DNA of 64,000 bases from an uncultured Desulfatiglans sp. (GCA_964499695.1 CAZCMD010000002.1:5423-69422); one strand, 5' to 3'; positions 2,267 to 54,128 are shown, numbered from the stretch's first letter. Numbers and translations: made by a program. Notes: generated by a model from the letters alone, not told the origin.

Positions 2267-5158
2267 TTACTGCAGTCGCCAGACTTCCCGGTAAGCCAAT
2301 CGATCCAGCACGGTTTCGCGTAAAAAACCTTCTATTGTTCCATTCACTCCTACCATCACATCTATATTATTCCTTTTGAATTCAGCCATATTAGATGTTT
2401 TATGGGTCTTGTTTTTATAAATGGTCTCGATATGCCATGCATTGATGGCCTCCCCGTCAAAATCATCAATAACGATCTTAAAATATCCTTTGGGACCTTC
2501 ATAGACAGGATGATCTGCGTCCAGTACGACAGGTTCGCTGTTTGAAAAAAGTACTTCATTCAGCTGGTAGCAGTGGCCGCAGACATCAGGTTTTACAAGA
2601 AACCTGGGATCCTCCGGCAAGGGCTCGTCCCGCTTGTAGGTTACCGCTCCCTTTGCGATATGGAAAGAAGCTCTTCCCTTTAAGAGATCGACAGGAACAT
2701 CAAGGGTAACGTACATATCCTGGTATCGCATGGTGATCTTTTCCTGGGACGGCCCATACTGTGGGAGTGTATCCAGCAGCTCCTCGTCCATGGGGCCGAA
2801 CGTCTTATCGGAAACCACTTGCCCGTTCGCGTCCGACAGACGGCATTCAACCACTCTCTTTTCAGGGTCAATCTTCACAACCTTGAACATATAACTTCCA
2901 AAGGCCGTCTCTTCACCTTCTCCAAGAACAGCCTGCCCGGGTTTTTCATAGGTTATGGTAAATTCGTCCATGCCCGGGGCGCCCATTTCCGCCACTTCCA
3001 CAAAATCCGGTGAAATGAATTTCGGGATCAGGTATGTGCTGCCCTCGGCAAATACATCAGGGATGTAGTATTTAAAATCCTGTTTATAAACGCCTTCTTC
3101 CGGAAGCGTTTCGGGAAGGTCATCATATGAGTTTAAGCCCTGTGCAACAAGAAGGTTGGCTCCCCAGTTATTCCCCGAATATTTCGTCACGCGAAGTTCC
3201 CCAATCGGCTTACCCCATAAAAAGTCGGTACCCGTGTAGCGAACGGCCTTGGCGCCGTCGCCGATAGCAACATCCTGCCAGAAAATCAGGTTGTCATCGC
3301 CCATGGGATATTCCTTCCAGAGGTCGATCTTAAAGTCCTTCTTTACTACCAGATAGCTTTTAAACCCCAGGAGATATGCATCCTTCCCGAGGATTGTAAG
3401 GGGTTCTCCCGGACGGATATTCCTGTTGTCACGCGAGCTGTAACAAAGCCCCCCGGGAGGGATGATGATTTTACGATTCCTATAATCCACGTAGCTTTTC
3501 CTGATTGTCATGGCTTCCTGGGCGATCAGACGATTGCCATCATTTGTTTTCATGTATTTGCGTATAAAACCATTCAGTTTCGGTACAAATGCACTCGAGG
3601 AGTCAGGGTTGAACCACTTTGCATCAGGAATAACCTCAGGATAGGATGTGAAACGTGACTGCACCACCGGGACACCATAGGTAGGATCAGCCAGTCGTTC
3701 GAGGAAGGTATCCTCCATCACAGGATAGAACAGCGGGCTCTTGCCGATGAAAAAGTCGATATTTTCTCTTCCCTCCTTCCAGAGTATAAGGTTGTCAGTT
3801 CTCTGGAAATAAGAATCTCGCACATAGCAATCCTTTACAACGTCGTCTTTAAAATCCCTGGCAACCACCTTGAAATAACTTCGGTCCCATACTTCTGAAA
3901 TCTTTACAGGACCGTTAAAACTGCTGTTGTTATCGCTCAGGACAAAGGCCTCCCGGTTTTCCAGCACAAGCCTTTTCAGCATGCCTGTCTTATAGTCCGC
4001 CTCAAGCCTCACGATATACCGGTCGTCTTTCGGCCATGGCTTTCCATCCTCAACCCTGATGAGGTCATTGTAGACGGCCAGGGAAAGGGTACCGTCCTTC
4101 CACCCATAAGGCACATCGTTGGCCCAGGGAACGAAGTCCGATGCCTTGTAGGAATAAGGATCAACAATAAGCTCGATATGCATGTCAAGATCGAAATCTG
4201 TCAGGCAATAATCATCCTGATTTTGAATCTTATATTCCTGCTGGGTAGCCGGCTTAAGAAGCTTGGATGCTAGTATTTTTTCCCCTGTCCAGTTCCTTAT
4301 CTCCACCAGGACGCCGTTCTCTTTCCTGAAGGTGTATATCCTTTTGTTGCCGTACCAGCGGAAAGTCTCCTGATATACATCCATCACCCATGGTCTTTCC
4401 ATCGAAAAAACGGCATCAGCGACAATGGGATATTCTATCATCGAAAAAACGGCCTTATCAAAACCGATATTTTTGGCAACCAGTTTTGTAAGTCCATAAA
4501 GATAAGAGTCGCTCATGAAAAAGGATTTAAGCTGAGGATTGATACCTTCATTCAGCTTCATCTCCTTCACATCATCCGCTTTACTAAAGGAGGTAGATAT
4601 AGGCCATTCATGAGGCCATGCCCCGGAAGGTGAAATGAGGGCAAACTCGCCGTATGGTTTTCCGTAATGATCCGTCGCGTAATCAAACCACAGCCGGTAA
4701 CCGGAGGCATCCAGGATCGCCTTTTCACCCTTTTTCACCTCTACATCCCGTTTAATTACTTTTTTATGGGTAGAGCGAAGAAGATAGGTGTGCTCCCCGA
4801 GAATTAAAAACGGTTCTCTCATCAGGGGTCTCGCATCATCTGAGGTCTCAGATACGTAATAAAGACCGCCCGCAGGTACATATGCCTTACCCTCTTTGAT
4901 CTTGCTTCCCCTTAAAATGAGACATTCCGAAAGACCTCGTTTCTCACCGTATTGGTTGTGGTATTCATTGTTAAGCAGGCCTCCAAGTTCGGGGATATAG
5001 GTCGCATCCCGTATTGGGGCCAACCCCCTTGGATTTTCCTCTCCGATGGAGGGAGTTGTGGAGTAAATTAAAAAGAAAGCTATTAAAATGGCCGCTAAAG
5101 ACCATTTCATTCCAGAAGCGCGTGAATGAAGGCATTTATCAATCCTTAGAAAAGACAC
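2267..5158 (-). CDS. Large secreted protein of unknown function (963 aa) with an internal duplication
   Basis: GTG start with GGAGGG 4 nt upstream. The N-terminal signal-like segment is MKWSLAAILIAFFLIYS. Two related segments are present (VPAGGLYYVSE...REPFLILGEHTYLL... and IPPGGLCYSSR...GEPLTILGKDAYLL...). I recognised no family. Confidence 0.7.
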   Translation of the reverse strand: MSFLRIDKCLHSRASGMKWSLAAILIAFFLIYSTTPSIGEENPRGLAPIRDATYIPELGGLLNNEYHNQYGEKRGLSECLILRGSKIKEGKAYVPAGGLYYVSETSDDARPLMREPFLILGEHTYLLRSTHKKVIKRDVEVKKGEKAILDASGYRLWFDYATDHYGKPYGEFALISPSGAWPHEWPISTSFSKADDVKEMKLNEGINPQLKSFFMSDSYLYGLTKLVAKNIGFDKAVFSMIEYPIVADAVFSMERPWVMDVYQETFRWYGNKRIYTFRKENGVLVEIRNWTGEKILASKLLKPATQQEYKIQNQDDYCLTDFDLDMHIELIVDPYSYKASDFVPWANDVPYGWKDGTLSLAVYNDLIRVEDGKPWPKDDRYIVRLEADYKTGMLKRLVLENREAFVLSDNNSSFNGPVKISEVWDRSYFKVVARDFKDDVVKDCYVRDSYFQRTDNLILWKEGRENIDFFIGKSPLFYPVMEDTFLERLADPTYGVPVVQSRFTSYPEVIPDAKWFNPDSSSAFVPKLNGFIRKYMKTNDGNRLIAQEAMTIRKSYVDYRNRKIIIPPGGLCYSSRDNRNIRPGEPLTILGKDAYLLGFKSYLVVKKDFKIDLWKEYPMGDDNLIFWQDVAIGDGAKAVRYTGTDFLWGKPIGELRVTKYSGNNWGANLLVAQGLNSYDDLPETLPEEGVYKQDFKYYIPDVFAEGSTYLIPKFISPDFVEVAEMGAPGMDEFTITYEKPGQAVLGEGEETAFGSYMFKVVKIDPEKRVVECRLSDANGQVVSDKTFGPMDEELLDTLPQYGPSQEKITMRYQDMYVTLDVPVDLLKGRASFHIAKGAVTYKRDEPLPEDPRFLVKPDVCGHCYQLNEVLFSNSEPVVLDADHPVYEGPKGYFKIVIDDFDGEAINAWHIETIYKNKTHKTSNMAEFKRNNIDVMVGVNGTIEGFLRETVLDRLAYREVWRLQ

Positions 5159-5636: not shown

Positions 5637-7016
5637 CTATTTTGCCGGTTTAAGGTCTTTGAGCCTGAGAAGGGAATTCTCAGGAGGAATTACAGCATTC
5701 TCTTTTGGCTTCTTAAGCTGCGGAACATAACTATATGGGACCCTGTATGCCCTGTATACCAGGTTAAAATTTTCAGACTTATCATAGTAAGGGCTGACAT
5801 ATTCCCATACTATCTTATAATCAGGTGTAACTTCAAAAATACGGCCAAATGAGCCTTCAGTTATAAGTGTATTACCGTTTGGCAGTCTCTGGGCTGAGCT
5901 TACATAATCACTGTAAAACCTTACGTTATCCCTTGAGCCCGCCTTATTCGCATTATATTCCCATACAATTTCTAGTGTAACAGGGTTTAATTCAATAACC
6001 CTTGAATAATCCCTTTTTAAATTATTAATGCCGGTCGGGGCGACGGGACTAGGTTCACCATATCCACCATAACCACCATTATCAAAAATAAGTATGTTTC
6101 CTTCACCGGGCAAACCTTTTGGGATCATGTGGGCATGATGCTGACCTATAATAGGCCCGATCTTTCTCAGTTCCTTTGTAGATTCATATTCAGGACCTAA
6201 ATGCCATACAATCTTGCCGGTTTTTCTATCTATGATTCCGGTCGTATTGGTCTGGCGCCCATCATATATGATATTGTCAGGGTTGAATCGTTCATCTCCC
6301 TGATCATACCACTTGTTTGGACCAAGCCATGACGCGGCATTAACATGTATCCAGTCGCCGCCAACAATACCCGGCGTCCTGGTCATCGCGTAATTTGGGT
6401 ATCTGTACATGACTATCTTTGCAATTTCATCAAATCCCATCTCTTTTACATGATCGCTGGCAATCCATCTGAAGATTTCTTTACCGCTGTAATCCACTTC
6501 CACGATAATATCATCACACAAAAGCTTGTCACTTATCTTCTTGTTCTCGACCATAAAATTGGAAAGGATCAGCGTTTTGCCCTTGTCCACGTATGAATCC
6601 ATTCCGGGCACATAATAGCCTACAGGGTTCCCCTCCCTCTGAAAATCATGGTGAACACCTGCCTTCTTAAATGTCCATACTATTTTTCCATCCCAGTCAA
6701 CGATTGAAAGATCATTTGATTCTTCATGACCCAGTATCCTGCCGCCCTTTCCTGTGGCACCCATTGCATATCCGCCGGGGAGTAATTTTGCAGGATGCTC
6801 CTCGTCACACATGTTGGCCCAGTGATGAACAACATTACCGTTCATATCTATCAGGATTGCCTGGTTTCCCTTTGTTGTAAGAATTGTGTAGCCGCTGTAT
6901 GTTTTATCAGGGTTAAAAATAGTTGTACCGTGGGGATACACAGTAGGAAACGCATATATTGATGAAGGTATTAAAAAACACAGCAACAAAATCGAATATA
7001 TATAGTATCTTTTCAT
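5637..7016 (-). CDS. Arylsulfotransferase (ASST)-like beta-propeller protein, exported
   Basis: Recurrent propeller-blade motifs (DMNGNVVHHW, DWDGKIVWTF, DRKTGKIVWHLG, LEIVWEY, YKIVWEY) typical of the ASST family. I chose the ATG at 7016 (AAGGAG 6 nt upstream) rather than the TTG at 7034. Confidence 0.5.
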   Translation of the reverse strand: MKRYYIYSILLLCFLIPSSIYAFPTVYPHGTTIFNPDKTYSGYTILTTKGNQAILIDMNGNVVHHWANMCDEEHPAKLLPGGYAMGATGKGGRILGHEESNDLSIVDWDGKIVWTFKKAGVHHDFQREGNPVGYYVPGMDSYVDKGKTLILSNFMVENKKISDKLLCDDIIVEVDYSGKEIFRWIASDHVKEMGFDEIAKIVMYRYPNYAMTRTPGIVGGDWIHVNAASWLGPNKWYDQGDERFNPDNIIYDGRQTNTTGIIDRKTGKIVWHLGPEYESTKELRKIGPIIGQHHAHMIPKGLPGEGNILIFDNGGYGGYGEPSPVAPTGINNLKRDYSRVIELNPVTLEIVWEYNANKAGSRDNVRFYSDYVSSAQRLPNGNTLITEGSFGRIFEVTPDYKIVWEYVSPYYDKSENFNLVYRAYRVPYSYVPQLKKPKENAVIPPENSLLRLKDLKPAK

Positions 7017-7043
7017 AACAGGCTCCTTAGTCAAAAGACAGGT

Positions 7044-8232: not shown

Positions 8233-8741
8233 GGGTCACCTCCTTCCTTGGAGATTTAATGGAATGTGATCTTGACCGAACCGACGGACACCTATCGGGT
8301 TCCGGATATCAGAAACAAAGATATCTCTATCCGGATATCTAACCGGAAAAGCATTCAGCTTAATGATGAATTGGCTTAAAATTTTTCAAGTTGTAAAGAT
8401 TCATGATTGGATAAAAGAGAAGAGGTCGACACGAATCTTTATTACCCAAAGCCCGACGGAGGTTGATCTTTTAAATCCATAAAAATCTCCATTTTTAAGT
8501 GAATAATAAGCCTACAAAGGCTATTTTTGCTCCAATATAATATTAAACGGTTGGAATGTCAAGATTTAGCCGAAAACAGGCAAATATCGGAATTTTCTAA
8601 TTTTATAGCCACAGTCAGATCCGGCAGTCAAATAATATTCAGTAAACCGTAAAGGATTCCTGTCAGGGTCTGTAAAATAGGGCTTTACATTTTTCTATTT
8701 TTTATTTAAAGCGCTAATACTAATAGATGAGGTGCCTGTAT

Positions 8742-9299
8742 ATGAAACGATATTTACTATATTCATCAATTCTTATTGTATTAACCCTTAACATTTTTTC
8801 GGCTTCTGTATCCGGTGCTGTTGAATATAAATGGCTCAAGACATCAAACTATCAGACAGTTCTGGTATTTGCAGATATAAAGGAATGCGGGCAATTATCC
8901 GGATATATGAAAGATACTATAAAGGTTATCCTGTCGCGCTCGGATATCAAAGCGACCATCTCAGACAGCCTTGTTTTTCAGTCTGAAGAAGAAGGTGGTG
9001 GATTTACACTGGAGCTTATGAACAGTAAACTGATAGAAGACCGCAAGATACTCTTTTATGTGTATGGCAGATGTATTGAATATGGCTCGGCCCTTATTTA
9101 CCAGTTTGATATAAATTTCGCCACATATGATAATAAGAGCTCACAGGCACTTATCTATTCATCGCCCAGACACAGCGTGTTTGGCGCTGATTCAGTAAAC
9201 GGTATTAAAAGGAAATTTAAAAAGCTCATGGAAGATGCAACGATTGATTATCTCTCATCCAATAAAGAACAGTCAAAACCTTATAAAACAAATAGGTAA
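8742..9299 (+). CDS. Exported hypothetical protein
   Basis: ATG at 8742 with GAGGTG 7 nt upstream. Signal peptide MKRYLLYSSILIVLTLNIFSASVSG. Confidence 0.55.
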   Translation: MKRYLLYSSILIVLTLNIFSASVSGAVEYKWLKTSNYQTVLVFADIKECGQLSGYMKDTIKVILSRSDIKATISDSLVFQSEEEGGGFTLELMNSKLIEDRKILFYVYGRCIEYGSALIYQFDINFATYDNKSSQALIYSSPRHSVFGADSVNGIKRKFKKLMEDATIDYLSSNKEQSKPYKTNR

Positions 9300-9374: not shown

Positions 9375-9914
9375 ATGACACAAAGGAAATATGAGAGACT
9401 TGTATATGAGTTTAAACCTGAATACAACGAGGCAGCAGCTGAAGGCGTGGGAACGGATTTTGTCTATTCTCCACAGGCATATTTCAGGGGTGCATGTCAG
9501 ATACCCGGTTCAAAGTACAATGTGGGTTTTCAGATCTTTGTAAAACCCTTCTTTCTTGACAGGACTCCTCACCGACACCCTGTTGAAGAATATCTTATTT
9601 TTCTGGGTGGGACATTCCCCAATGTGTTTGAATTTGACGCTGATATTTCGCTCTGTCTGGGTGAAGAGATGGAGGAATATATCATTACCAAGCCAACCAT
9701 AGTGCGCATACCCGCCGGCGTGCTCCACTGCCCGCTTAATTTCAAGCGTGTTGATAAGCCGATCTTTTTTCAGGCAGCATGCATGCAGGGTATGTTCGGC
9801 GGCGTATATAATGGAAAGGAGATCTATTACAATGGGCCTGGCCAGTGTGTATATGATGCAGACAAGAAGTGCGATGCCTGCAAAAAATGCCTGGATGATG
9901 ACTGGGATAGATAA
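9375..9914 (+). CDS. Cupin-like hypothetical protein with a Cys-rich C-terminus
   Basis: HRHPVEEYLIFLGG resembles cupin motif 1. C-terminal CVYDADKKCDACKKC. AGGAAAGGA RBS. Confidence 0.35.
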   Translation: MTQRKYERLVYEFKPEYNEAAAEGVGTDFVYSPQAYFRGACQIPGSKYNVGFQIFVKPFFLDRTPHRHPVEEYLIFLGGTFPNVFEFDADISLCLGEEMEEYIITKPTIVRIPAGVLHCPLNFKRVDKPIFFQAACMQGMFGGVYNGKEIYYNGPGQCVYDADKKCDACKKCLDDDWDR

Positions 9915-9931
9915 TTTTTACATGATAAGCC

Positions 9932-9962
9932 TGTTGAGACTGGTTTGAAACCCGTCTCAACA
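9932..9962. terminator. Hairpin between convergent genes (possible bidirectional terminator)
   Basis: tgttgagac-N13-gtctcaaca forms a 9-bp perfect stem between the stops at 9914 (+) and 9991 (-). The flanking T/A runs are weak. Confidence 0.45.
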
Positions 9963-9990: not shown

Positions 9991-12900
9991 TCAATTTTTA
10001 ATACTATTTATCTCAGAAATAGCCCATTCTGCACTTTTTCTTGAGAGTTCATTCTCATCTTTCAGGAGCTTTGTCAGTGCAGGTATGGCAGTTTTAGCAG
10101 GTTTTCCTATCTTTCCAAGGGCGAGAGCCACCTTTGATTTTACAAAATAGTTTTTATCATCAAGGGAATCGATCAATGCAGGAACAGCTTCGATGGTTGA
10201 GGGACTCCTTTTACCAAGTGCCGCTGCTGACCGTACCTTGACCATATTATCCCCATTATCAAGTTCATCAATTAGTATAGACACTGCCTCTTTTACAGAC
10301 TGATCTATGGCGATAAGTGCGTCGGCAGCGCTGATCCTGACCTTGGGGTCACTATCTTTTAATGCGTTAACAAGCTGACCTGCGCTTGATTTTGCCTCTT
10401 TTCCTATCTTGCCAAGGGCACGGGCTGCACATACCTTTACTAAAGGACTCGGATCACTAAGTGCATTAGCAAGTTCAGGTACAGCAGGTGCTGCCATCGG
10501 CCCTATGCTGCCCAAGGCATCAGCAGCTCCCCACTTTACACTCTCTATACTGTTAATATCGGAAAAAACCTTTTGAAGGTAAGGTACTACCTTTTTTCCG
10601 GTAGCACCGAGAAGAAATATACTGTTCCTGTGGACATATTCATCCTGATCTTTTAACAGCTCTATAAGTGCAAAAATATATGCCTCTGAATCCATACCAA
10701 TATTGATAAGCGAACGTACAGCAGCATACTGTACAGCAGAGCTGGAATCTTTAAGAGATGAGGTCAGGTTGATTGCCGCATCTTTTATTTCAGGACCCAT
10801 TTTACCAATGGATTCAGTTGCGCTTACCCGTACATTTTCATCCTGATCCTTAAGTGCAGCAATAATTTTTGAAATTACTTCTTTATTAACAGGCTTTATA
10901 TTCCCAAGGGCATAAACTGCACCAGACCTTACATCCGGGTTTGTATCCTTTGATGCCTCAATAAGGGGTTTAACAGCCTCAGGCCCTATCATGCCCAAAA
11001 TATATACAATATTTTCCGGCTGCCAGACAACAGGCTCAGGCCCTTTCTGATCTTGAATTGCTACAGCAGATTTATCCTTAAGGTACTGAATAAGCGCAGG
11101 AACAGCATCAGGGCCGATAATGATAAGGGCATCAGCAGCGGCAGACTGTACATTAGGATTTTTATCCTTCAGTTTAAGTATCAGTTCAGGAATAGCCGTC
11201 TTGCCAATAATTCCCAGTGCCTCCGAAACCCTGTAACGGATGGATTTGTCATCAAGGGCTTTAATAAGGTGAGGGACAGCCGAAGGCCCTATCTTTCCAA
11301 GGGTGTTAACAACCTTTGAGCGAAAATATTCATCATTTTTATGTTTAAGAGCTTCGATTAACAGGGGAACAGCATCCTTTGCTGCGCTACCAGTTTTACT
11401 AATTGCATATACGGCATATGACCTGACAAAGATATCCCTGTCTTTAATGGCATCCATCAGCGCCCCTAACGTCTCTTTTCCAGAAGGATCAATCTTGATT
11501 ATGGCACTTACGGCAAGCCTTCTTACAATCACATCTTCATCTTTAACTGCCATTATCAGGGCAGGAATGGCTGCCTTGTCAGATGAACCGATATGGTTTA
11601 TTGCCTCAACCCCTGCCCTGCGTATAATCACCTCCTTGTCTTGAAGGGCCTCAATAATGGCGGAAATGGCCTCTGAGGTAGGTGAACCTGACTTTCCAAG
11701 GACATTGATAACTGTATTTCTTAAAACAGGGTCATTATCCCTTGATGCACTTACAAGGGCAGCGGTTACATCATTTCCGGTTGCCCCAATTGATAAAATG
11801 GCATTTGCAGCAATTGCGCGCAAATAGGTCTCTTCATTTTTTGAAGTTATGATCTTTAATAATTCAGGAACAGCATCCTTTGCCTTTACTCCTTTTTTAG
11901 AGAGGGCTTCAACTGCATATGCCCTGATAGAGGGATCAGTATCCTTAAGATCTTTTATCAGTGATAAAACATCCCTGTCAGCTAAAGGAATTGAATCAGC
12001 ACCAGCGTCTATGGCCTGCATATCAGGTTGGAGCTTACTTTCTTTTAGTGTTTCAGAATCGGGTACGCTCTTCTCTCCATCATGCGAAGTACTATCAATA
12101 TAATCGTTAGATTTTAATCGGATAGCACTGTCATATGCATTCAATGCCTGGAGAGCCTCTGAGTTTGTGCTTTTTGATGAGATGATCTTTCTTAATGCCT
12201 CGGCTGCACTGGTATGAATGGAGACATCATTGCCTTTTAATATCTTCACCAGACCGGGTATGGCCCCTTTTGCTGGCGCCCCGATCTCACCCAGGGCATC
12301 AGCAGATAATTTTCTAATAGTTATATCCTGATCCGAAAGAGATGCAACGAGGTATGGTACAGCAGCATCAGCAGACGGACCGATATTAATAATGGCATTA
12401 ACAGCAGCCAGACGAACTGGTTTTTTACCATTGGTATCACCCAGTATCTTGCCAAGTTCAGTGACAGCACCCTTTGCATCAGCACCTATTACACCTAGTG
12501 CAATGGCCGCACCCTCCCTGATATTTTCATCTTTATTTTTAAGCGCACCTGTAAGGGCCGGTAGAGCCTTTGCCCCCATCCTGCCAATGATGTTTTCAGG
12601 GCTATAATATGAATTACCTGCGTTGCTTATCTTCATGGCATCTATTAAGGGCTGTATTGCATCCTGACCCATACGTGTCAATGCATAAGAGGCCCCCCAA
12701 TTTATTGAGCCATTAATATCTTTCTCATTAATTACATCAATCAGGACTGGTATGGCTGCCTTTGCCTTTGATCCCATTCTTCCTATGGTAACAGCAGCCC
12801 TGTATCTTAAGATATTGTCATTTTTATCCTTCAGGGCATTTACAAGGGCTGACACACTCTGAGCTCCTATCCTGATCAAAACGGTTGCAGGGCCCTCCAC

Positions 12901-13437
12901 ACTCCAGACAATATCATCATTCCCCTGTTTAAGGCTTTTTATCAGATCAGGAATAGCAGACAAACCAAAACCGGTAAGGGAGTCAACAGCGCATTTTCTG
13001 ATGTAAGGATCATTATCCTTCATCATGCGGATAAGCGCCTGAGCAGCATCTTTTGAATGAGAACCTGTTTTACCGAGCGCAACAAGAGAGGCGATGCGTA
13101 CAGAATCATCCTCGTCATCAAGGGCCTTTATAAGATAAGGAATCGCATCCTTTGCCTGTTCACCCATATCTCCAAGTACCTTTACCGCCCTTTCACGGAC
13201 AGCAGGGTCTTTATCCTTAAGGGAATCTAAAAGGGTAGATACAGTTTCTCCTCTTGTAGAATCTACGTTATTTATAAGATCTGCAACCTTCTCTTTATCT
13301 TTAATGTCCTTGGTATCTGTTATTTTACCGGGGCTGTCATTGCTGGTCATGGCCGGTAAAGGATGAATTAACACTGATATGGCAATGGTCACAAGAATTA
13401 AACAGATATTTGTGCCCTTTATAACTGCCCTGCTCAT
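9991..13437 (-). CDS. Giant HEAT-repeat (PBS-lyase HEAT-like) protein with an N-terminal signal/anchor, 1148 aa
   Basis: More than 25 tandem units of about 31 aa of the type D.D..VR..A..ALG.IG (e.g. DKDPAVRERAVKVLGDMG, DEDDSVRIASLVALGKTG). Hydrophobic N-terminus ICLILVTIAISVLIHPLPA. The start is 23 nt after the exbD stop. Confidence 0.85.
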   Translation of the reverse strand: MSRAVIKGTNICLILVTIAISVLIHPLPAMTSNDSPGKITDTKDIKDKEKVADLINNVDSTRGETVSTLLDSLKDKDPAVRERAVKVLGDMGEQAKDAIPYLIKALDDEDDSVRIASLVALGKTGSHSKDAAQALIRMMKDNDPYIRKCAVDSLTGFGLSAIPDLIKSLKQGNDDIVWSVEGPATVLIRIGAQSVSALVNALKDKNDNILRYRAAVTIGRMGSKAKAAIPVLIDVINEKDINGSINWGASYALTRMGQDAIQPLIDAMKISNAGNSYYSPENIIGRMGAKALPALTGALKNKDENIREGAAIALGVIGADAKGAVTELGKILGDTNGKKPVRLAAVNAIINIGPSADAAVPYLVASLSDQDITIRKLSADALGEIGAPAKGAIPGLVKILKGNDVSIHTSAAEALRKIISSKSTNSEALQALNAYDSAIRLKSNDYIDSTSHDGEKSVPDSETLKESKLQPDMQAIDAGADSIPLADRDVLSLIKDLKDTDPSIRAYAVEALSKKGVKAKDAVPELLKIITSKNEETYLRAIAANAILSIGATGNDVTAALVSASRDNDPVLRNTVINVLGKSGSPTSEAISAIIEALQDKEVIIRRAGVEAINHIGSSDKAAIPALIMAVKDEDVIVRRLAVSAIIKIDPSGKETLGALMDAIKDRDIFVRSYAVYAISKTGSAAKDAVPLLIEALKHKNDEYFRSKVVNTLGKIGPSAVPHLIKALDDKSIRYRVSEALGIIGKTAIPELILKLKDKNPNVQSAAADALIIIGPDAVPALIQYLKDKSAVAIQDQKGPEPVVWQPENIVYILGMIGPEAVKPLIEASKDTNPDVRSGAVYALGNIKPVNKEVISKIIAALKDQDENVRVSATESIGKMGPEIKDAAINLTSSLKDSSSAVQYAAVRSLINIGMDSEAYIFALIELLKDQDEYVHRNSIFLLGATGKKVVPYLQKVFSDINSIESVKWGAADALGSIGPMAAPAVPELANALSDPSPLVKVCAARALGKIGKEAKSSAGQLVNALKDSDPKVRISAADALIAIDQSVKEAVSILIDELDNGDNMVKVRSAAALGKRSPSTIEAVPALIDSLDDKNYFVKSKVALALGKIGKPAKTAIPALTKLLKDENELSRKSAEWAISEINSIKN

Positions 13438-13460
13438 TAATAACTCCTGTTAAATAAAAA

Positions 13461-13868
13461 TTACCGATCCTTTTCCGTGGCAAGGCACAATCTTCCAGCG
13501 CCGGCAGCCTTTGCAACATCCATCACCCTCACAGCCTTATTCAGGATCACACCCCTGTCTGCCTTGATAACGACAAGCCTGTCCTTGTCATTACCGATCA
13601 TCTTTTTCAGATCCTTGAACAGTGCATCAAGGGAGATCTCCTTATTCATCAAAAATGCCCTTCCCTCTTTATCCACATACAGGGTTATCTCCTGTTGGGT
13701 CTGGGGCGCTGCGGCATTTGCCTGGGGCAGCTTTATCTTGATACCCTCATCAACCAGAAAATTTGTTGTAAGGAGAAAATAGATAAGGAGCAGAAACACT
13801 ATGTCTATAAGCGATGTCAGGGGCGACTGAATTTCATATCTTCTTTTTTTACGAGGTTTTAATGACAT
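13461..13868 (-). CDS. exbD: ExbD/TolR-family biopolymer transport protein
   Basis: 135 aa. N-terminal TM segment (LTSLIDIVFLLLIYFLL) followed by a periplasmic ExbD-type domain. Confidence 0.85.
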   Translation of the reverse strand: MSLKPRKKRRYEIQSPLTSLIDIVFLLLIYFLLTTNFLVDEGIKIKLPQANAAAPQTQQEITLYVDKEGRAFLMNKEISLDALFKDLKKMIGNDKDRLVVIKADRGVILNKAVRVMDVAKAAGAGRLCLATEKDR

Positions 13869-13877
13869 GATTTACCT

Positions 13878-14489
13878 TTATTTTTTTAGTCTTCCAATGC
13901 CTTTAATAAATGTAACTGCACCTGACTGAAGTACTGCCTCATATTTGTCTATCCTGGAATAGAGGTAACTATAGGCGACCATTGTTGGGAGCGCTACACC
14001 AAGACCAAGGGCAGTTGTAAGCATTGCCTCCCAGATGCCTCCTGCAAGTACTGCTGCATTAACCTTTCCACCCATCTCCTGGATAACCATAAATGCCTTT
14101 ATCATCCCGAATACAGTACCCAGAAGTCCAAGAAGCGGGGCAATATTGCCCATTGTGGCAAGTGCCTGCACATACCGGGAAAGACTTCTAACCTCTTCAT
14201 CAGTGGAGTTGGAAATGACTGTCTCAAGGGTATCCCTGTCCTGGTCAATTACCTCTACTGCATGTAAAAGCACTCTTCCCATTGGAGAGTTGCTTTTTAA
14301 AAGCATATCCTGAAGATGTTTTTCATCGCCTTCCTTAAGCATCTGTACTGTCTTTAAGGCAAGATCAGTGCCATGGTTATTTATTTTTGAAAACCTTATT
14401 AGCCGCTCGACGAAAATGGCAAGTGCTATGACAGAACACAGTAAAATGGGAATTACCAGCACACCGCCTTTAGCAAGTAAATCAAACAT
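13878..14489 (-). CDS. exbB: MotA/TolQ/ExbB-family proton channel
   Basis: 203 aa with the conserved C-terminal TM pair (...GNIAPLLGLLGTVFGMIKAF...AGGIWEAMLTTALGL...). Confidence 0.85.
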   Translation of the reverse strand: MFDLLAKGGVLVIPILLCSVIALAIFVERLIRFSKINNHGTDLALKTVQMLKEGDEKHLQDMLLKSNSPMGRVLLHAVEVIDQDRDTLETVISNSTDEEVRSLSRYVQALATMGNIAPLLGLLGTVFGMIKAFMVIQEMGGKVNAAVLAGGIWEAMLTTALGLGVALPTMVAYSYLYSRIDKYEAVLQSGAVTFIKGIGRLKK

Positions 14490-14617
14490 CCTTTTTCCTC
14501 CTTGTTAATTACATTTTACCTTTCATAACCCTCTGTAGAGACAAGGCATGTTTACCCGCCAGTATTTTGGCGGGCCTTGCTTCTACTATTTATCCGGGCA
14601 ATTCATATCGCTATAAA

Positions 14618-16345
14618 TCATTCTGTCACCGCCCCCTGATCCTCTCCGGCCTCTTCAACAATATCAGGGGTTCCGTCATAATCCAGGTCCTTCTTTGTCT
14701 GGATAACAGCCTCTGTCTCATCATAGATTTCCCAGATATCGGGCTTGCCATCAAGGTTGGTATCCTCTTCAACAGAGGTCAAAATATTCTCTGCATAATG
14801 AAACCATGTATCAATCTTTCCATCAAGATTATCATCCTTTTCGGCCAGTACTGCCTTTTCACCTTCATAGTGCCAGATGATATTTATCTTTCCGGTATCC
14901 CCTTCATCCTTTTCGATCTTTGTTATCTTACCGTTTTTATCCAGATGGTCTATCTGCTCAAGCCTGCCATCACTGTTTTCATCAATCTCTTTTTTCTTGA
15001 GCAGTGAATCCTGATAAAAAAGCCGTGTCTCAGGATTACTATCATTATCAGCATCATTTTCCAAAATAACAGACCACTCCGGCCTGTTATACCAGTAGGT
15101 TATTTCGAATCTGCTGTCATGGTTTTCATCCTTTAAACGTTTGACCCTCTTTCCCTCAGTATAAAGCTCAATGATATCCACTACACCGCTGGCATTTGCA
15201 TCCTTTTCAACACGGGCAAGACCTTTCAGATTATAAAATGCCCAGGTGTCATATCGCCCATCAAGATTACTGTCATCCTCAGACATCTTTTTGCTCCCAT
15301 TATTATTTAAAAAGACCCTGTCATCAGCTATGCCGTCCATATTTTTATCCCTGGTCATCAAATATACTACGGCTCCTTTTGTGTTAAAAAATCTGATCCG
15401 GTCTATTTGACCCGTATGCATCGAGTCATCAAATATCTTTTTTAAAATTCCTTTATCATCATAAAAAGAAAATCTGTCAGGGGCCCCGTTAAAATTGCTA
15501 TCAGCCTCTTCTGAAAAAGGCTTATCCTTTTTGATTGCAACTGATGAGTCATATTTGCCGTCAAGGTTTTTATCCCTTTTCTGTATTACAGGAAGGGAAT
15601 TCACAAAGGATGTTAAGATTTCATACCTCCCGTCAAGGTCCCTGTCTCTTTTTTCTTCTTTGAGTTCACCGGCTTCATAAATGCGGAATATATCCATGAT
15701 CCCGTCCTTGTCTGAATCCAGACTGCGGCTATATAACTGCCCTTCACTGTCAAAGCGTGTTACATAATCAAGGATATTGTCCCCATCAGGATCTGACATC
15801 TGCATATAAGGTTTATCGTTTTTATAATCCTGCCAGACATTCACCTTTTTATCGTTGTCTGTATCATCTAAATAAGAGACAAGCTTTCCATCATTGTAGT
15901 AAACAACCTGGTTTAAATTCCCATCGCCATTTGTATCTATTCTCCTCCTGACCCACTTCTCATCTTCATCAAAATCAATTATTTCATATATTCTACCCTC
16001 TTTATTTATCTTTTCCTGACGTATGACTTTACCTTCTGAATAGTATATCCTTTCGTCTATTTTGTTATCAAAATCACTGTCAGTTTCAATCCTTAAATAC
16101 TTATCGTTTTTAACATAATAAAACTTATCCATTATCCCGTCTTCATTGTTATCAGACTCAACCAGATTGATAACGCCTATTGAGGCGTCCCTGTGGATAA
16201 TACTGTCAGCCTCACCATCAAGATCCCTGTCCTGAACAACTGTAACTGCCATTACCTGACTGCACAATAAATGCAGTAAAAAGATGATCAAAGGAGCTGT
16301 TGAAACAGCAGATAAAAAAGATAGTTTATTTCTGTTTTTTTTCAT
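14618..16345 (-). CDS. Secreted protein made of about 22 tandem 24-aa DxDxDG (EF-hand-loop-like) repeats
   Basis: Signal peptide MKKNRNKLSFLSAVSTAPLIIFLLHLLCSQVMA. Repeats include DTNGDGNLNQVVYYNDGKLVSYLD, DSDKDGIMDIFRIYEAGELKEEKR and DDNLDGKIDTWFHYAENILTSVEE. I preferred the ATG at 16345 over the ORF-track start at 16369. Confidence 0.75.
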   Translation of the reverse strand: MKKNRNKLSFLSAVSTAPLIIFLLHLLCSQVMAVTVVQDRDLDGEADSIIHRDASIGVINLVESDNNEDGIMDKFYYVKNDKYLRIETDSDFDNKIDERIYYSEGKVIRQEKINKEGRIYEIIDFDEDEKWVRRRIDTNGDGNLNQVVYYNDGKLVSYLDDTDNDKKVNVWQDYKNDKPYMQMSDPDGDNILDYVTRFDSEGQLYSRSLDSDKDGIMDIFRIYEAGELKEEKRDRDLDGRYEILTSFVNSLPVIQKRDKNLDGKYDSSVAIKKDKPFSEEADSNFNGAPDRFSFYDDKGILKKIFDDSMHTGQIDRIRFFNTKGAVVYLMTRDKNMDGIADDRVFLNNNGSKKMSEDDSNLDGRYDTWAFYNLKGLARVEKDANASGVVDIIELYTEGKRVKRLKDENHDSRFEITYWYNRPEWSVILENDADNDSNPETRLFYQDSLLKKKEIDENSDGRLEQIDHLDKNGKITKIEKDEGDTGKINIIWHYEGEKAVLAEKDDNLDGKIDTWFHYAENILTSVEEDTNLDGKPDIWEIYDETEAVIQTKKDLDYDGTPDIVEEAGEDQGAVTE

Positions 16346-16355
16346 TTGATAGGTC

Positions 16356-16991
16356 TCATAACAGTTCAAATGATAGATTTAATGGTATTACAACTCCGCC
16401 CTTGAAGATATTCTGCGGAGGTTTTGGAAAGGGAATACTGTCTTTTACTGCCTGAAGCGCAGCATGGTTCAGGGAATTATAAGGGCATGGTTTAACAATC
16501 TTCAGATTACTGACTGTACCATCAGGATTTATGATAAAGCTCAGGGAAACAACCGCCTCCTTGTACGTACCGTCCGCATCTTTAGGGTATTTTTTAACCC
16601 GCTCTATCCTGCGGAGGACCATCTCTTTATAGTCTTCACCCTTTGTAAGGCCAGACACACCTTCAATAAGGCTTGATGAAAGTGCTGTATCGCCATGCCC
16701 GGTCATAATACGGCTTACATCCGGAACTGATAGAGGGGCTGCCTGGCTGATATTTATCTTGCTGTCGTTCTGAAGCACAGGCTTTGGTATCATCGGGGGC
16801 CTCGGTATGCCGCGGCCAGGGGTCTTTTTTTCCTGCATCATATTCAATTCTATGAACTGGTATACCTTTGAGGAGAGTAACCCATTCATGTGGAGATATA
16901 TCGGGATGTGTACAACCATGGAAAAAATAATCAGCCATAACAAGAGCTTATTTGATTTTTTATCAGTATTATGTATAGATTCCATCAACAC
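16356..16991 (-). CDS. tonB: TonB-family energy transducer
   Basis: N-terminal TM segment (LLLWLIIFSMVVHIPIYL), Pro-rich linker (GRGIPRPPMIPKPV) and a C-terminal TonB_C-like domain (…AVVSLSFIINPDGTVSNLKIVKPCPYNSLNHAALQAV…). Confidence 0.8.
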   Translation of the reverse strand: MLMESIHNTDKKSNKLLLWLIIFSMVVHIPIYLHMNGLLSSKVYQFIELNMMQEKKTPGRGIPRPPMIPKPVLQNDSKINISQAAPLSVPDVSRIMTGHGDTALSSSLIEGVSGLTKGEDYKEMVLRRIERVKKYPKDADGTYKEAVVSLSFIINPDGTVSNLKIVKPCPYNSLNHAALQAVKDSIPFPKPPQNIFKGGVVIPLNLSFELL

Positions 16992-17232
16992 TATCCTAAA
17001 ATCAATGTTTTAAACAATATGGTTTTTAATGCAGATAAAAAAACTGAAAAGCTTATAAAACTTATAACAACAGGAAAAGGTGAATGTAAAGAGAAAAAGA
17101 TTTATTACTTCCCTAATTGTGCTCAATACAATCACTTTATAAATTTAATTGGCTGTTTTTAAGAATAAAATCCCGCTAATCTATAAACGATCGTAATATA
17201 ATTGCCACGATCTATATATTTTATAAATGTTG

Positions 17233-51437: not shown

Positions 51438-54086
51438 TCATTCGTTACTTTCAACCTCAGGATGATTTTCCTTTAACCATTTTCGGCTTACCTTTCCTCC
51501 AAATATACTGCGCATCGACTGAGGATTAACTATAGTGCTTAGATAAAGATGCGCTACAATCAGAATTAGGATTAACAATGCTGCCAGATCGTGAAGTGTA
51601 TAAAGCATAGCAAGATTGGTATTTATGTTATCCTTAAGTATAGCCAAAGAGACACCTGTGATGACCAGGAAAAAACCGCATGCGGCTATCATCCAGAATA
51701 ATATCTTCTGGCCTGCATTGAACTTGCCTGCAGGTTGTTCTCCGCGATAACCAAAATATCCACCCAGCGCCTTAAGCCACTTTTTGTCACTCTTGTTGAA
51801 AAGCATATCCCTGAACCAGATAAGCATCATCGCTATCCATGCTACACCAAATACAATGCCTATCCACATATGGAGGTTACGTGTCGGCATGCCATTTAGC
51901 CCCCGATTATTCTGTAAAAACAGTATGCCGGTTATTGCAAGGACAAGAAAAGCGGCGAGAGAAACATAATGTGCCAACCTTTCGGAGAGTGTGAATCGCA
52001 TAGTGAGGTCAGTCTCTTCGAGCGATGATCTAATGCTCCTCTGTCCATAGATCACAAAATGGAGCAACAAAACAAGTATCTCTATAAAAATTATCCAGAG
52101 ATTAGCGGGTTTTAAAATGGCCTCCCTGAACGAGCCAAGCCAGGCCTCAAGTGAAGTGATGCCCAGAATCGCATAGTTGGGTATCCATTCAGGTTGAGCA
52201 TCAGTACCAGTGAACAGTGCATCAAGAATAGCCCCATTAAAAAAGGCAGAGTCTCTGCTATGGCAATCAATACAGCCCCCTGACCCCAAAGCTGCCTTTG
52301 AGGGTGCAATATCATGAGAAAACTTATAAACCGATGCATATGCAGTAGCCTCATACTCCTCACGGTGAAGCTCTCTGACCTCTGTTGATGAAAAATATGC
52401 CTTGCTATCTGATACCCATACCAGCCGACGATTCTCAAGAGGAAAAGATGTTGCTGTAAGATAATCCTTTGTCGCTGTAAGTAGAGCCTCTATTTCCTCA
52501 TCACGATTAACCTCAATAATACCGTCCTTATTGTCGTCTGTTATCTTTGAAAGTTCAGGATATTTTTTTCCCGGATCTGCCTGATGTTGCGCCCACATCT
52601 GGTAAAAGTCCTTCATAAAAAGCTGGTTCAGCCCGGTCTTGCCTTGTTCTTCAAATCCAACCCATGAGCTGTGGACACGGTTAGCAGGGAAAATTTTACC
52701 CTTGTATCTTATAAGAGTGGGCCGGGTTATGTCAGTCGGCTGATCTTTGTTAGTAAATAGTTCCAGTTCCCCATAGTGGTTCCAAAAGTTCATCTCCTGG
52801 TCATAAAATGTCCATATGTGTTTCCCGGCAGGGTTAATCCTTGGCGCTGGGTTATAAACATCACTGGCCTGAACTAATGCGCTTTTTACTGAACGTGCCG
52901 GTATATGGCATGCCTGGCATGATATTTTATCTAGGTGCAGATCAGGAAGCCAGTCATGCCTTGCACGCGGGGCATTACCCCATCCTTCTATATGACATCT
53001 CTCACATGATCGAACCGTATTATCAAGGTCATTGCGGACAGAACCGGACGGGTCATCACCCTTCCCTATCTGGTGCACCTCTTTACCTCGGATTATCGGG
53101 TCAGCAGCATCGCTGCCAGCCGTATGGCAATCCACACAACGAAGTCCGGCAGCCATGTGGATATCCGTGCGGGTAGAGAATGAAGCCCCTCGCTTTTTCC
53201 AGCCAGGTTTGGCATGACATTTAAGACAGGTCTCATTTCGCGGTTCAGGAGTCATATGCAGCATGACATTGCCTTCGGCATCAAACCTGCTTTTATCATA
53301 GGAAATGGTTGGTTTTTCACCTGTGTTTACTTTTCCAATTATCTCCCCTAAACCTGCCCCTGCCGTCGCGGCCCAGCGAAAGTTCAGGTTGGCAAGCTCT
53401 TTGTTTCGTTTTGTATAGTCATACTCAGGCATATGACATAGAAGACAATCTGCCTCGATCACGCCAGTCTCTGCCCAACGCGCCTTGAAATAATCGCCAT
53501 CAAAATTATTCTCTCCGCCAGAGACCAGGCCTGATGCGGGATCTTGCATATTTATGTCATAGCGTTTGCCGTCACGGTCATACTCAAGAGGCCCTCCTCC
53601 TGGATGGCAATTACCACAGGAGGCGGTCACAAATTCAAAGGAGGTCATATCAATTATGCGTGCGTTTGTGTTATTTTTAGAGGCAAGCTGCCGATAAAGG
53701 GGAGCAGGTGAGCACCAGTTTCCGCCATAATTTCCGGGCGAACTTACCCAGTTGTAGCGTTTGGCCATGGCATCAGGGACTTTCTCCCCCTTACCCTGAG
53801 TAAAGTGAAAACCCTCGGTGATTTTTTCATAGTTGTGACATCCGCTAACACCGCAGGTCTGCTTGGGGGAATATGGTACAGTATCGTTTATACCTTTAAC
53901 AGGGTCAATTATATTTCCAGCCTCATCGCGTAGTTGAAAAGGTGGGCAGACATCAATGGCCTGGGGCACATCTTCATCATTAGAGGAATGATTACGAGTT
54001 TCTCCTATAGTCACATCAGGACTTACTCCCGCAAATAACATTATCATAAGGCCAATGCTTATAAAAGAAGTATAAATATATTTCAT
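51438..54086 (-). CDS. Fusion cytochrome: periplasmic octahaem c-type domain plus C-terminal FdnI/HydC-like b-type membrane domain (CbcL-like)
   Basis: Seven CxxCH motifs (SCGNCH, DCLLCH, TCLKCH, RCVDCH, SCERCH, SCQACH, GCIDCH) plus one CX4CH (CGVSGCH). The last 250 aa or so carry 4-5 TM helices with conserved His residues. I preferred the ATG at 54086 (GAGGGGG upstream). Confidence 0.8.
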   Translation of the reverse strand: MKYIYTSFISIGLMIMLFAGVSPDVTIGETRNHSSNDEDVPQAIDVCPPFQLRDEAGNIIDPVKGINDTVPYSPKQTCGVSGCHNYEKITEGFHFTQGKGEKVPDAMAKRYNWVSSPGNYGGNWCSPAPLYRQLASKNNTNARIIDMTSFEFVTASCGNCHPGGGPLEYDRDGKRYDINMQDPASGLVSGGENNFDGDYFKARWAETGVIEADCLLCHMPEYDYTKRNKELANLNFRWAATAGAGLGEIIGKVNTGEKPTISYDKSRFDAEGNVMLHMTPEPRNETCLKCHAKPGWKKRGASFSTRTDIHMAAGLRCVDCHTAGSDAADPIIRGKEVHQIGKGDDPSGSVRNDLDNTVRSCERCHIEGWGNAPRARHDWLPDLHLDKISCQACHIPARSVKSALVQASDVYNPAPRINPAGKHIWTFYDQEMNFWNHYGELELFTNKDQPTDITRPTLIRYKGKIFPANRVHSSWVGFEEQGKTGLNQLFMKDFYQMWAQHQADPGKKYPELSKITDDNKDGIIEVNRDEEIEALLTATKDYLTATSFPLENRRLVWVSDSKAYFSSTEVRELHREEYEATAYASVYKFSHDIAPSKAALGSGGCIDCHSRDSAFFNGAILDALFTGTDAQPEWIPNYAILGITSLEAWLGSFREAILKPANLWIIFIEILVLLLHFVIYGQRSIRSSLEETDLTMRFTLSERLAHYVSLAAFLVLAITGILFLQNNRGLNGMPTRNLHMWIGIVFGVAWIAMMLIWFRDMLFNKSDKKWLKALGGYFGYRGEQPAGKFNAGQKILFWMIAACGFFLVITGVSLAILKDNINTNLAMLYTLHDLAALLILILIVAHLYLSTIVNPQSMRSIFGGKVSRKWLKENHPEVESNE

Positions 54087-54128
54087 TTTACCCCCTCTTT
54101 TAAAAACCATTTTCTGAAACACAGTATC

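Follow-up and report, generated by a model that had tools for sequence, protein, structure and literature searches.

A minus-strand operon of five open reading frames (ORFs), running from 16991 to 9991 in a 64,000-nt stretch of DNA from an uncultured Desulfatiglans sp. (GCA_964499695.1 CAZCMD010000002.1:5423-69422; hereafter, the window), encodes TonB, an exported protein composed of short DxDxDG repeats (referred to here as REP), ExbB, ExbD, and an exported HEAT-repeat protein. The usual account of a Ton system has three proteins. On balance, we lean towards interpreting this operon as a Desulfobacterota-type Ton module, supplemented with two lineage-specific periplasmic accessories, that energizes TonB-dependent transporters (TBDTs) encoded elsewhere. 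REP and the HEAT protein are undescribed putative accessory proteins of the Ton system, no publication describing either of them having been found, and REP has neither an assigned family nor a solved relative. Of the two findings, the broad REP family has the firmer footing and the wider scope, and the clade with the HEAT protein is the more unusual.

The Ton core and its REP partner

The stator and the TonB arm encoded in the operon are complete and intact, in line with the sequence-only reading, which had seen a full TonB/ExbB/ExbD transducer here. The tonB product carries the Pfam domain TonB_C (PF03544; 45.7 bits at the cutoff of 24.6, E = 9e-12) and is recognized by the NCBIfam model tonB_Cterm (TIGR01352; 52.1 bits at the cutoff of 27.1). 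Its N-terminus has a single hydrophobic segment, a transmembrane helix with the S-x3-H anchor motif of the TonB family (FSMVVH), defined from E. coli TonB, and a short Pro-containing linker joins this helix to the C-terminal domain. The nearest solved structures are the C-terminal domain of H. pylori TonB (E = 7e-10) and HasB; protein P0155 is 100% identical to the TonB of the window, and exactly this sequence is also found in the Logan assemblies of SRR8925737 and SRR8925742 and in an NCBI contig. ExbB matches Pfam MotA_ExbB (PF01618; 108.5 bits, E = 3e-31), and ExbD matches Pfam ExbD (PF02472; 101.9 bits, E = 3.5e-29), with its transmembrane Asp22 aligned to Asp25, an essential residue in E. 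coli ExbD (alignment with 6TYI chain Y). For both proteins, all scores with the ExbB/ExbD and TolQ/TolR equivalog models are far under the cutoffs, the Tol scores being marginally higher; e.g., ExbB has 79 with TIGR02797 exbB (cutoff 206) and 96.7 with TIGR02796 tolQ (cutoff 221), and its similarity to solved TolQ and ExbB structures is about equal. Hence, judging by these profiles, ExbB and ExbD are probably best described as family members without subfamily assignment.

The evidence for REP as a Ton component comes from its genomic neighborhoods. A scan of one genome per GTDB species with a DNA pattern yielded at least 227 REP relatives, of which the best 79 loci were listed, and a metagenome scan added 75 further loci (individual loci are denoted below by L and a number). 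An exhaustive HMMER profile search produced 113 clusters (50% identity) at E < 1e-30. Pattern scans and exhaustive searches were needed because the word-indexed protein search, whether started from a single sequence or from a profile, is swamped by repeat words among the candidates and returned four proteins only. All taxonomically informative titles among the best 79 loci belong to Desulfobacterota, and the isolates include Desulfosarcina widdelii, D. alkanivorans, and D. cetonica.

The loci were annotated with phmmer and profile hidden Markov models (HMMs), and linkage was counted over loci with enough downstream sequence. The exbB gene directly follows REP in 59 out of 71 genome loci and 41 out of 51 metagenome loci (100 out of 122 in total), and lies within 5 kb of REP in 68 and 46 of these loci, respectively (114 out of 122), the commonest order being REP-exbB-exbD-tonB. 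A TBDT gene is found within 9 kb of REP in 30 out of 40 well-flanked genome loci, often together with Ni/Co or chelate-import genes. For example, according to Pfam, the order in Desulfobacula is REP-exbB-exbD-tonB-Peripla_BP_2-FecCD-ABC-TBDT, and in three other loci (L021, L029, L051) a TBDT with Plug and barrel domains is accompanied by DUF4198 and FmdE genes. Thus, the linkage of the repeat proteins to exbBD and tonB, on which the sequence-only reading had depended, is observed almost everywhere for REP, and within one clade for the HEAT protein. Taken together, the neighborhoods identify REP as a soluble periplasmic protein that partners Ton motors, is confined to one phylum, and lacks annotation; it is inherited with exbB whatever cargo genes adjoin, be it genes of Ni/Co import, Fe/B12-type ABC importers, or an OprC-like TBDT.

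Two variations of REP loci were seen in addition. A more distant REP-like family of ~410 aa, ~31% identical to REP (L141-L149), is encoded after a long TonB of 336-592 aa, exbD-exbB being on the opposite strand, as another arrangement of the same partnership. A Pfam check of L029 shows a small PD-(D/E)XK gene (PDDEXK_3; 12845-13213) inside its standard REP operon, and similar ORFs of 122-133 aa are present in L016, L020, L025, L027, L057, L094, L099, L103, L109, L120, and L131. They occupy either the REP-exbB or the exbD-tonB interval, and look like a recurrent selfish or accessory element.

REP itself comprises a Sec-type signal peptide and 20-22 units of ~24 aa, close to the estimate of about 22 calcium-loop-like repeats made earlier; in each unit, a D-x-[DN]-x-DG-x-x-D loop precedes a beta-hairpin. 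There are 13 strict D-x-[DN]-x-[DN]-G motifs and ~22 relaxed ones. The N-termini over ~75 loci are signal peptides of the AxA type, with no conserved lipobox Cys in homologues, and so a lipoprotein identity was rejected. An AlphaFold2 model built from a four-sequence alignment is locally confident, with a predicted local distance difference test score (pLDDT) of 85; its fold is entirely beta, ~44 strands forming regular pairs, making the hairpin-ribbon unit credible as a model. Foldseek finds local matches to Rhs/YD shells, teneurins, Tc toxins, and the OspA sheet (E = 1e-15 to 1e-9, TM-score 0.1-0.16).

REP reaches no family in Pfam or NCBIfam, and its only sequence matches in PDB are marginal ones of the loops to lanmodulin and EF-hand proteins (E = 0.04). 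DUF6802 scores below its threshold, and the similarity to the Leptospira adhesin Lsa25.6 (48.8 bits, cutoff 150) is at the level of repeats. The propeller scaffold proposed for REP by the sequence-only reading is not borne out: there is no FG-GAP match, and the model is a regular two-strand repeat with hairpin ribbons as its best matches. Rhs/YD shells, teneurins, and the single-layer sheet of OspA share the successive beta-hairpins with REP and are its best Foldseek matches; however, REP has no Pfam RHS/YD match and no toxin or plug domains, its period is 24 aa with one DxDxDG loop per unit, and the likeness is local, so that membership in the Rhs/YD group was rejected.

The clade with an exported HEAT-repeat protein

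The last gene of the operon encodes a protein with 15 stretches matching Pfam HEAT_2 (430 bits in total, E = 9e-132), also recognized by the NCBIfam domain DVU0298_fam (91 bits at the cutoff of 75). We counted 31 repeats, where more than 25 had been proposed, arranged as a block of 11 (residues 64-418), an acidic linker of ~70 residues (419-491), and a block of 20 (492-1137). As had been noticed for both repeat proteins, it begins with a Sec-type signal, and in both cases the signal is conserved in homologues; for the HEAT protein it is kept in all homologues of the clade described below, mostly with sites resembling those of signal peptidase I, and therefore the solenoid should be periplasmic. 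A single-sequence AlphaFold2 model is all-helical, with low confidence (pLDDT 57), and too poor for a fold search. Scores with the phycobilin lyase CpcE/F and NblB models (178, 166, and 110 with cutoffs of 330, 300, and 220, respectively) reflect generic repeat similarity, and PADLOC models of anti-phage defense gave generic HEAT matches only; both identities were rejected.

On the neighbor-joining tree of REP proteins, the window joins L005, L001, L006, L007, L008, and L009 on a long branch, and the HEAT-type loci form one monophyletic clade. The order tonB-REP-exbB-exbD-HEAT, whose conservation had been suggested as a check, recurs in at least eight further loci, namely L001, L005, L007, L008, L161, L163, and L164, and partly L140 (L161, L163, and L164 were found through a TonB search, and L140 through the metagenome scan), and is kept down to ~43% REP identity, while L009 has the order of the clade without exbBD. 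In the window, L001, L005, L007, and L008, and apart from the missing exbBD also in L009, tonB precedes REP, and the HEAT protein, of 915-1433 aa and with a signal, is encoded after exbD. Two members of the clade, L006 and L084, have a DUF6491 lipoprotein instead of the HEAT protein, and in L084 a gene for a tetratricopeptide repeat (TPR) protein lies upstream of tonB.

The two repeat proteins are co-inherited in this clade and, in one relative, fused. On a 6.48-Mb Desulfatiglandales contig, a gene between two tonB-REP clusters encodes an exported 831-aa fusion of N-terminal HEAT_2 and C-terminal REP-type DxDxDG hairpin repeats (L008:18811-21306, the same as L009:931-3426). Since the two are fused as one protein in this relative, a functional link between the REP and HEAT partners is supported. 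Further, L005, of the HEAT type, and L075, a REP locus of the TBDT type, occur in one metagenome-assembled genome (MAG), and thus the HEAT-type locus is a paralogous, presumably specialized system.

Some genes of this clade deviate. The HEAT gene of L001 is split by a frameshift (12931-13120), leaving the signal peptide in a separate 51-aa ORF, and that of L007 is broken into six or more ORFs (12823-15857); both cases probably reflect indels in the assembly and not pseudogene formation. Directly downstream of the HEAT gene in L009 (14517-21725), two proteins of ~1100 aa each combine an RCC1-like propeller with long ankyrin arrays, which is unusual for bacteria.

Operon layout and neighboring genes

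The five genes lie on the same strand with gaps of 10, 128, 9, and 23 nt (5' to 3' along the operon), as described from the sequence before; these values assume the REP start at ATG 16345 (M9 of the maximal ORF) and the tonB start at ATG 16985. Independent gene calls on the identical public contigs L159 and L160 give the same boundaries (Table 1). Approximately 75 nt upstream of tonB there is a promoter-like block, missed by a generic promoter scan; alignment of upstream sequences shows that L005, L161, and L163 keep it as well, and it may act as the tonB promoter. The hairpin in the spacer between REP and exbB could be an RNA-stability or attenuation element. The hairpin at the other end of the operon has no T-run, and hence was not reported by the terminator scan; it is likely the operon terminator.

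Table 1. Features of the operon and adjoining elements in the window
Feature	Coordinates	Strand	Description
tonB-type gene	16356..16985	-	209 aa from ATG; maximal ORF from GTG 16991; Pfam and NCBIfam matches
REP	14618..16345	-	575-aa exported protein; signal peptide and ~24-aa units
exbB/tolQ-family gene	13878..14489	-	203 aa; proton-channel subunit; Pfam MotA_ExbB
exbD/tolR-family gene	13461..13868	-	135 aa; Pfam ExbD
Exported HEAT-repeat protein gene	9991..13437	-	1148 aa; Pfam HEAT_2
Promoter-like block 5' of tonB	17061..17090	-	-35 TTTACA (17090-17085), 18-nt spacer, extended -10 TGT-TATAAG (17069-17061)
GC-rich hairpin GGCCCGCCAAAATACTGGCGGG	14555..14576	-	in the 128-nt REP-exbB spacer; without U-tract
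Hairpin GTTGAGAC-13 nt-GTCTCAAC	9933..9961		between the convergent HEAT gene and the gene of the 179-aa protein
Cupin-like cytoplasmic protein	9375..9914	+	179 aa; C-terminal Cys cluster; no Pfam family; possible system member
Isochorismatase-family hydrolase	17775-17233	-	Pfam Isochorismatase, E = 5e-28; possible system member
Ferredoxin (small 4Fe-4S)	17982-17788	-	64 aa; upstream neighbor of tonB; possible system member

Several neighbors recur. The ferredoxin and hydrolase genes, or the hydrolase gene alone, stand beside the cluster in L005, L163, L008, and the near-identical contig L160. Homologues of the cupin-like protein adjoin the HEAT gene in L005 and L163, where the two genes are convergent, and in L164, where they are on the same strand (E = 2e-25). 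Other genes of the window encode an exported 190-aa protein without a Pfam family (8727-9299, plus strand); a 963-aa protein that belongs to no Pfam family and begins with a hydrophobic signal (2267-5158, minus strand), adjoining an arylsulfotransferase-like gene (5637-7034); and an 894-aa protein with multihaem cytochrome c motifs and a C-terminal cytochrome b561/Ni_hydr_CYTB membrane domain (51438-54122, minus strand).

Function of the module

Since REP normally occurs in ordinary metal-import loci, a variant nutrient-uptake motor rather than a new envelope machine is the most likely function of the operon. By homology, ExbB and ExbD make up the proton-driven stator, ExbD having its catalytic transmembrane Asp, and TonB is the force-transmitting arm, with its S-x3-H anchor and C-terminal domain. 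Comparative genomics suggests that REP is a phylum-specific accessory subunit of Ton motors, and its inheritance with exbB regardless of cargo argues for a role on the energy-transducing side, not tied to a particular substrate; most likely, it serves as a Ca2+-stiffened periplasmic strut or adaptor touching the periplasmic parts of ExbD and TonB. In the clade of the window, tonB would have moved ahead of REP, and the exported HEAT solenoid would have been added after exbD, in the probable role of a scaffold that works with REP in the periplasm. The module most probably energizes TBDTs encoded elsewhere in the genome.

The resemblance to the canonical TonB-ExbB-ExbD system of E. coli extends to the domains of the three core proteins (TonB_C, MotA_ExbB, ExbD), to the S-x3-H motif, and to the ExbD transmembrane Asp, as well as to the linkage of the relatives of this module to TBDTs and ABC importers. 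The window operon differs in the two added exported repeat proteins, REP between tonB and exbB and the HEAT protein at the end, and in the scores of ExbB and ExbD, which are under the NCBIfam equivalog cutoffs. The nearest functional precedent is provided by the Vibrio TonB2 and TonB3 systems, with the gene order ttpB-ttpC-exbB-exbD-tonB-ttpD; uptake by TonB2 depends on each of TtpB, TtpC, and TtpD, the last being a TPR protein (PMC6957404). There, too, a Ton operon is enlarged by lineage-specific accessories including an alpha-solenoid, but homology of REP or the HEAT protein to the Ttp proteins was not detected, a membrane protein resembling TtpC is absent here, REP is all-beta with Ca-type loops, and the HEAT protein is ~3 times larger than TtpD.

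Several observations weigh against this interpretation. As noted before, there is no TBDT in the window, where scans with a profile HMM of 62 TBDTs from related loci and Pfam scans of large ORFs were blank, and none was found within the ~9-kb flanks of L001, L008, L009, and L164. A check of the N-termini of both repeat proteins, proposed earlier, showed no conserved TonB-box-like strand behind the signal peptides, the N-terminal strand of REP being simply its first repeat. No classical Fur box was found 5' of tonB, the best matches being no better than shuffled sequence in seven out of eight loci, and thus iron regulation of the operon is not supported. The overall shape of REP in the model has a predicted TM-score (pTM) of 0.56, with Foldseek TM-scores of ~0.1, and the Ca2+ binding that we infer for its loops is read from the motif.

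As for the missing transporter, tonB and exbBD are commonly unlinked from TBDT genes, as in E. coli, and so its absence from the window is weak evidence for a non-import role. Moreover, the absence proposed as a property of the system is not one: the REP-exbB-exbD-tonB cluster usually stands beside TBDTs, and three HEAT-type loci (L005, L161, L163) have a TBDT within a few kb. In L005 and L163, the closest relatives, an OprC-like TBDT is encoded upstream of the same ferredoxin/isochorismatase-tonB arrangement, that of L005 having E = 7e-24 to 6Z8R, a TonB-box-like ELAPIVVHG, and a plug-like segment. In L161, an 845-aa TBDT with Plug and barrel domains is encoded 890 nt 3' of the HEAT gene, and a second TBDT lies upstream. 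A 138-aa exported His/Cys-rich protein (HSHGKSHCCHS) adjoins the OprC-like TBDT in both L005 (5086-5502) and L163 (4943-5359), which suggests copper or other soft-metal cargo at these two loci.

An envelope machine other than import, as proposed by the sequence-only reading, is possible, although not the favored explanation. In such a TBDT-independent machine, the TonB arm would pull not a transporter plug but the HEAT solenoid, the REP ribbon, or both, similarly to the Agl-Glt machinery of Myxococcus, where the TonB C-terminal domain (CTD)-like domains of GltG and GltJ are predicted to dock on the ~1200-aa periplasmic TPR pillar GltD (PMC11761067). Both have a TolQR/ExbBD-type motor, TonB-CTD arms, and, in the periplasm, an alpha-solenoid that exceeds 1000 aa, in related phyla. 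The distinct paralogous lineage of the HEAT clade, coexisting with a TBDT-linked REP system in one MAG, is consistent with such a machine, as are the HEAT-REP fusion, the variable alpha-solenoid partner (the TPR protein of L084), the lack of a nearby TBDT in five of ~9 HEAT-type loci, and a faint sub-threshold match of the window TonB to the AgmX/PglI tail domain. Still, we consider it rather unlikely, given the overwhelming linkage of REP to TBDT and import loci, the TBDTs adjacent to the three HEAT-type loci, and an ordinary TonB_C domain nearest to H. pylori TonB and HasB; none of the loci showed Glt-like genes for outer-membrane or adhesin components in its surroundings, no cytoplasmic Glt components were found here, and the solenoid is HEAT, not TPR. 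A specific form of the same idea, in which ExbBD force is passed via TonB onto a super-scaffold of the HEAT solenoid and the Ca-loop ribbon, making the HEAT clade a Desulfobacterota counterpart of the Glt "pillar," likewise has a small probability; such a scaffold could power surface-protein display, secretion, envelope remodeling, or signaling via BlaR1-like sensors.

Signaling by the module as a whole, which would pass on an outer-envelope signal much as TonB-dependent cell-surface signaling does, would draw on the pairs of BlaI-like (Penicillinase_R) and BlaR1-type (Peptidase_M56) genes encoded directly 5' of tonB in three of ~9 HEAT-type loci (L001:6637-8766, L005:3182-5010, L009:6542-9217), the M56 protein of L005 having its own C-terminal TonB_C domain, and that of L009, TPR repeats. 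However, no M56 or BlaI homologue is present in the window, L161, L163, or L164, and the M56 proteins may just regulate the operon without forming part of the mechanism, which makes this explanation improbable. Equally doubtful is a metal-buffering or metal-binding role for REP in the periplasm, exerted through its ~20 acidic DxDxDG loops on the cargo side of TBDT-mediated metal uptake. It agrees with the metal-uptake character of the standard REP loci and with lanmodulin/EF-hand loops as the sole, if marginal, PDB similarity, but REP stays beside exbB whatever the cargo, also when no cargo genes are nearby, and DxDxDG loops are typically structural Ca2+ sites. Finally, a divergent Tol-Pal-like envelope-integrity system, with REP in place of TolB and the HEAT protein in place of CpoB, would explain the TolQ/TolR-like stator, with slightly higher scores for the TolQ/TolR than for the ExbB/ExbD models and TolQ structures as the top PDB matches of ExbB, and the beta-rich and alpha-solenoid periplasmic partners in one operon. 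It is highly improbable, as the Tol scores are far under the equivalog cutoffs (96.7 vs. 221 and 60 vs. 127), the operon has neither a Pal/OmpA-like lipoprotein nor a TolB-type propeller, the arm carries TonB_C and not TolA domain III, and the REP family stands beside TBDTs.

An entire phylum, made up of environmentally dominant sulfate reducers and their relatives, appears to build its Ton motors with an extra exported protein of ~580 aa. The REP family is large and well defined, and its presence in cultured Desulfosarcina species makes it directly testable. If REP is a true subunit, the models of metal, B12, and nickel uptake in these organisms would change, and REP would represent a new structural solution for spanning or organizing the periplasm.

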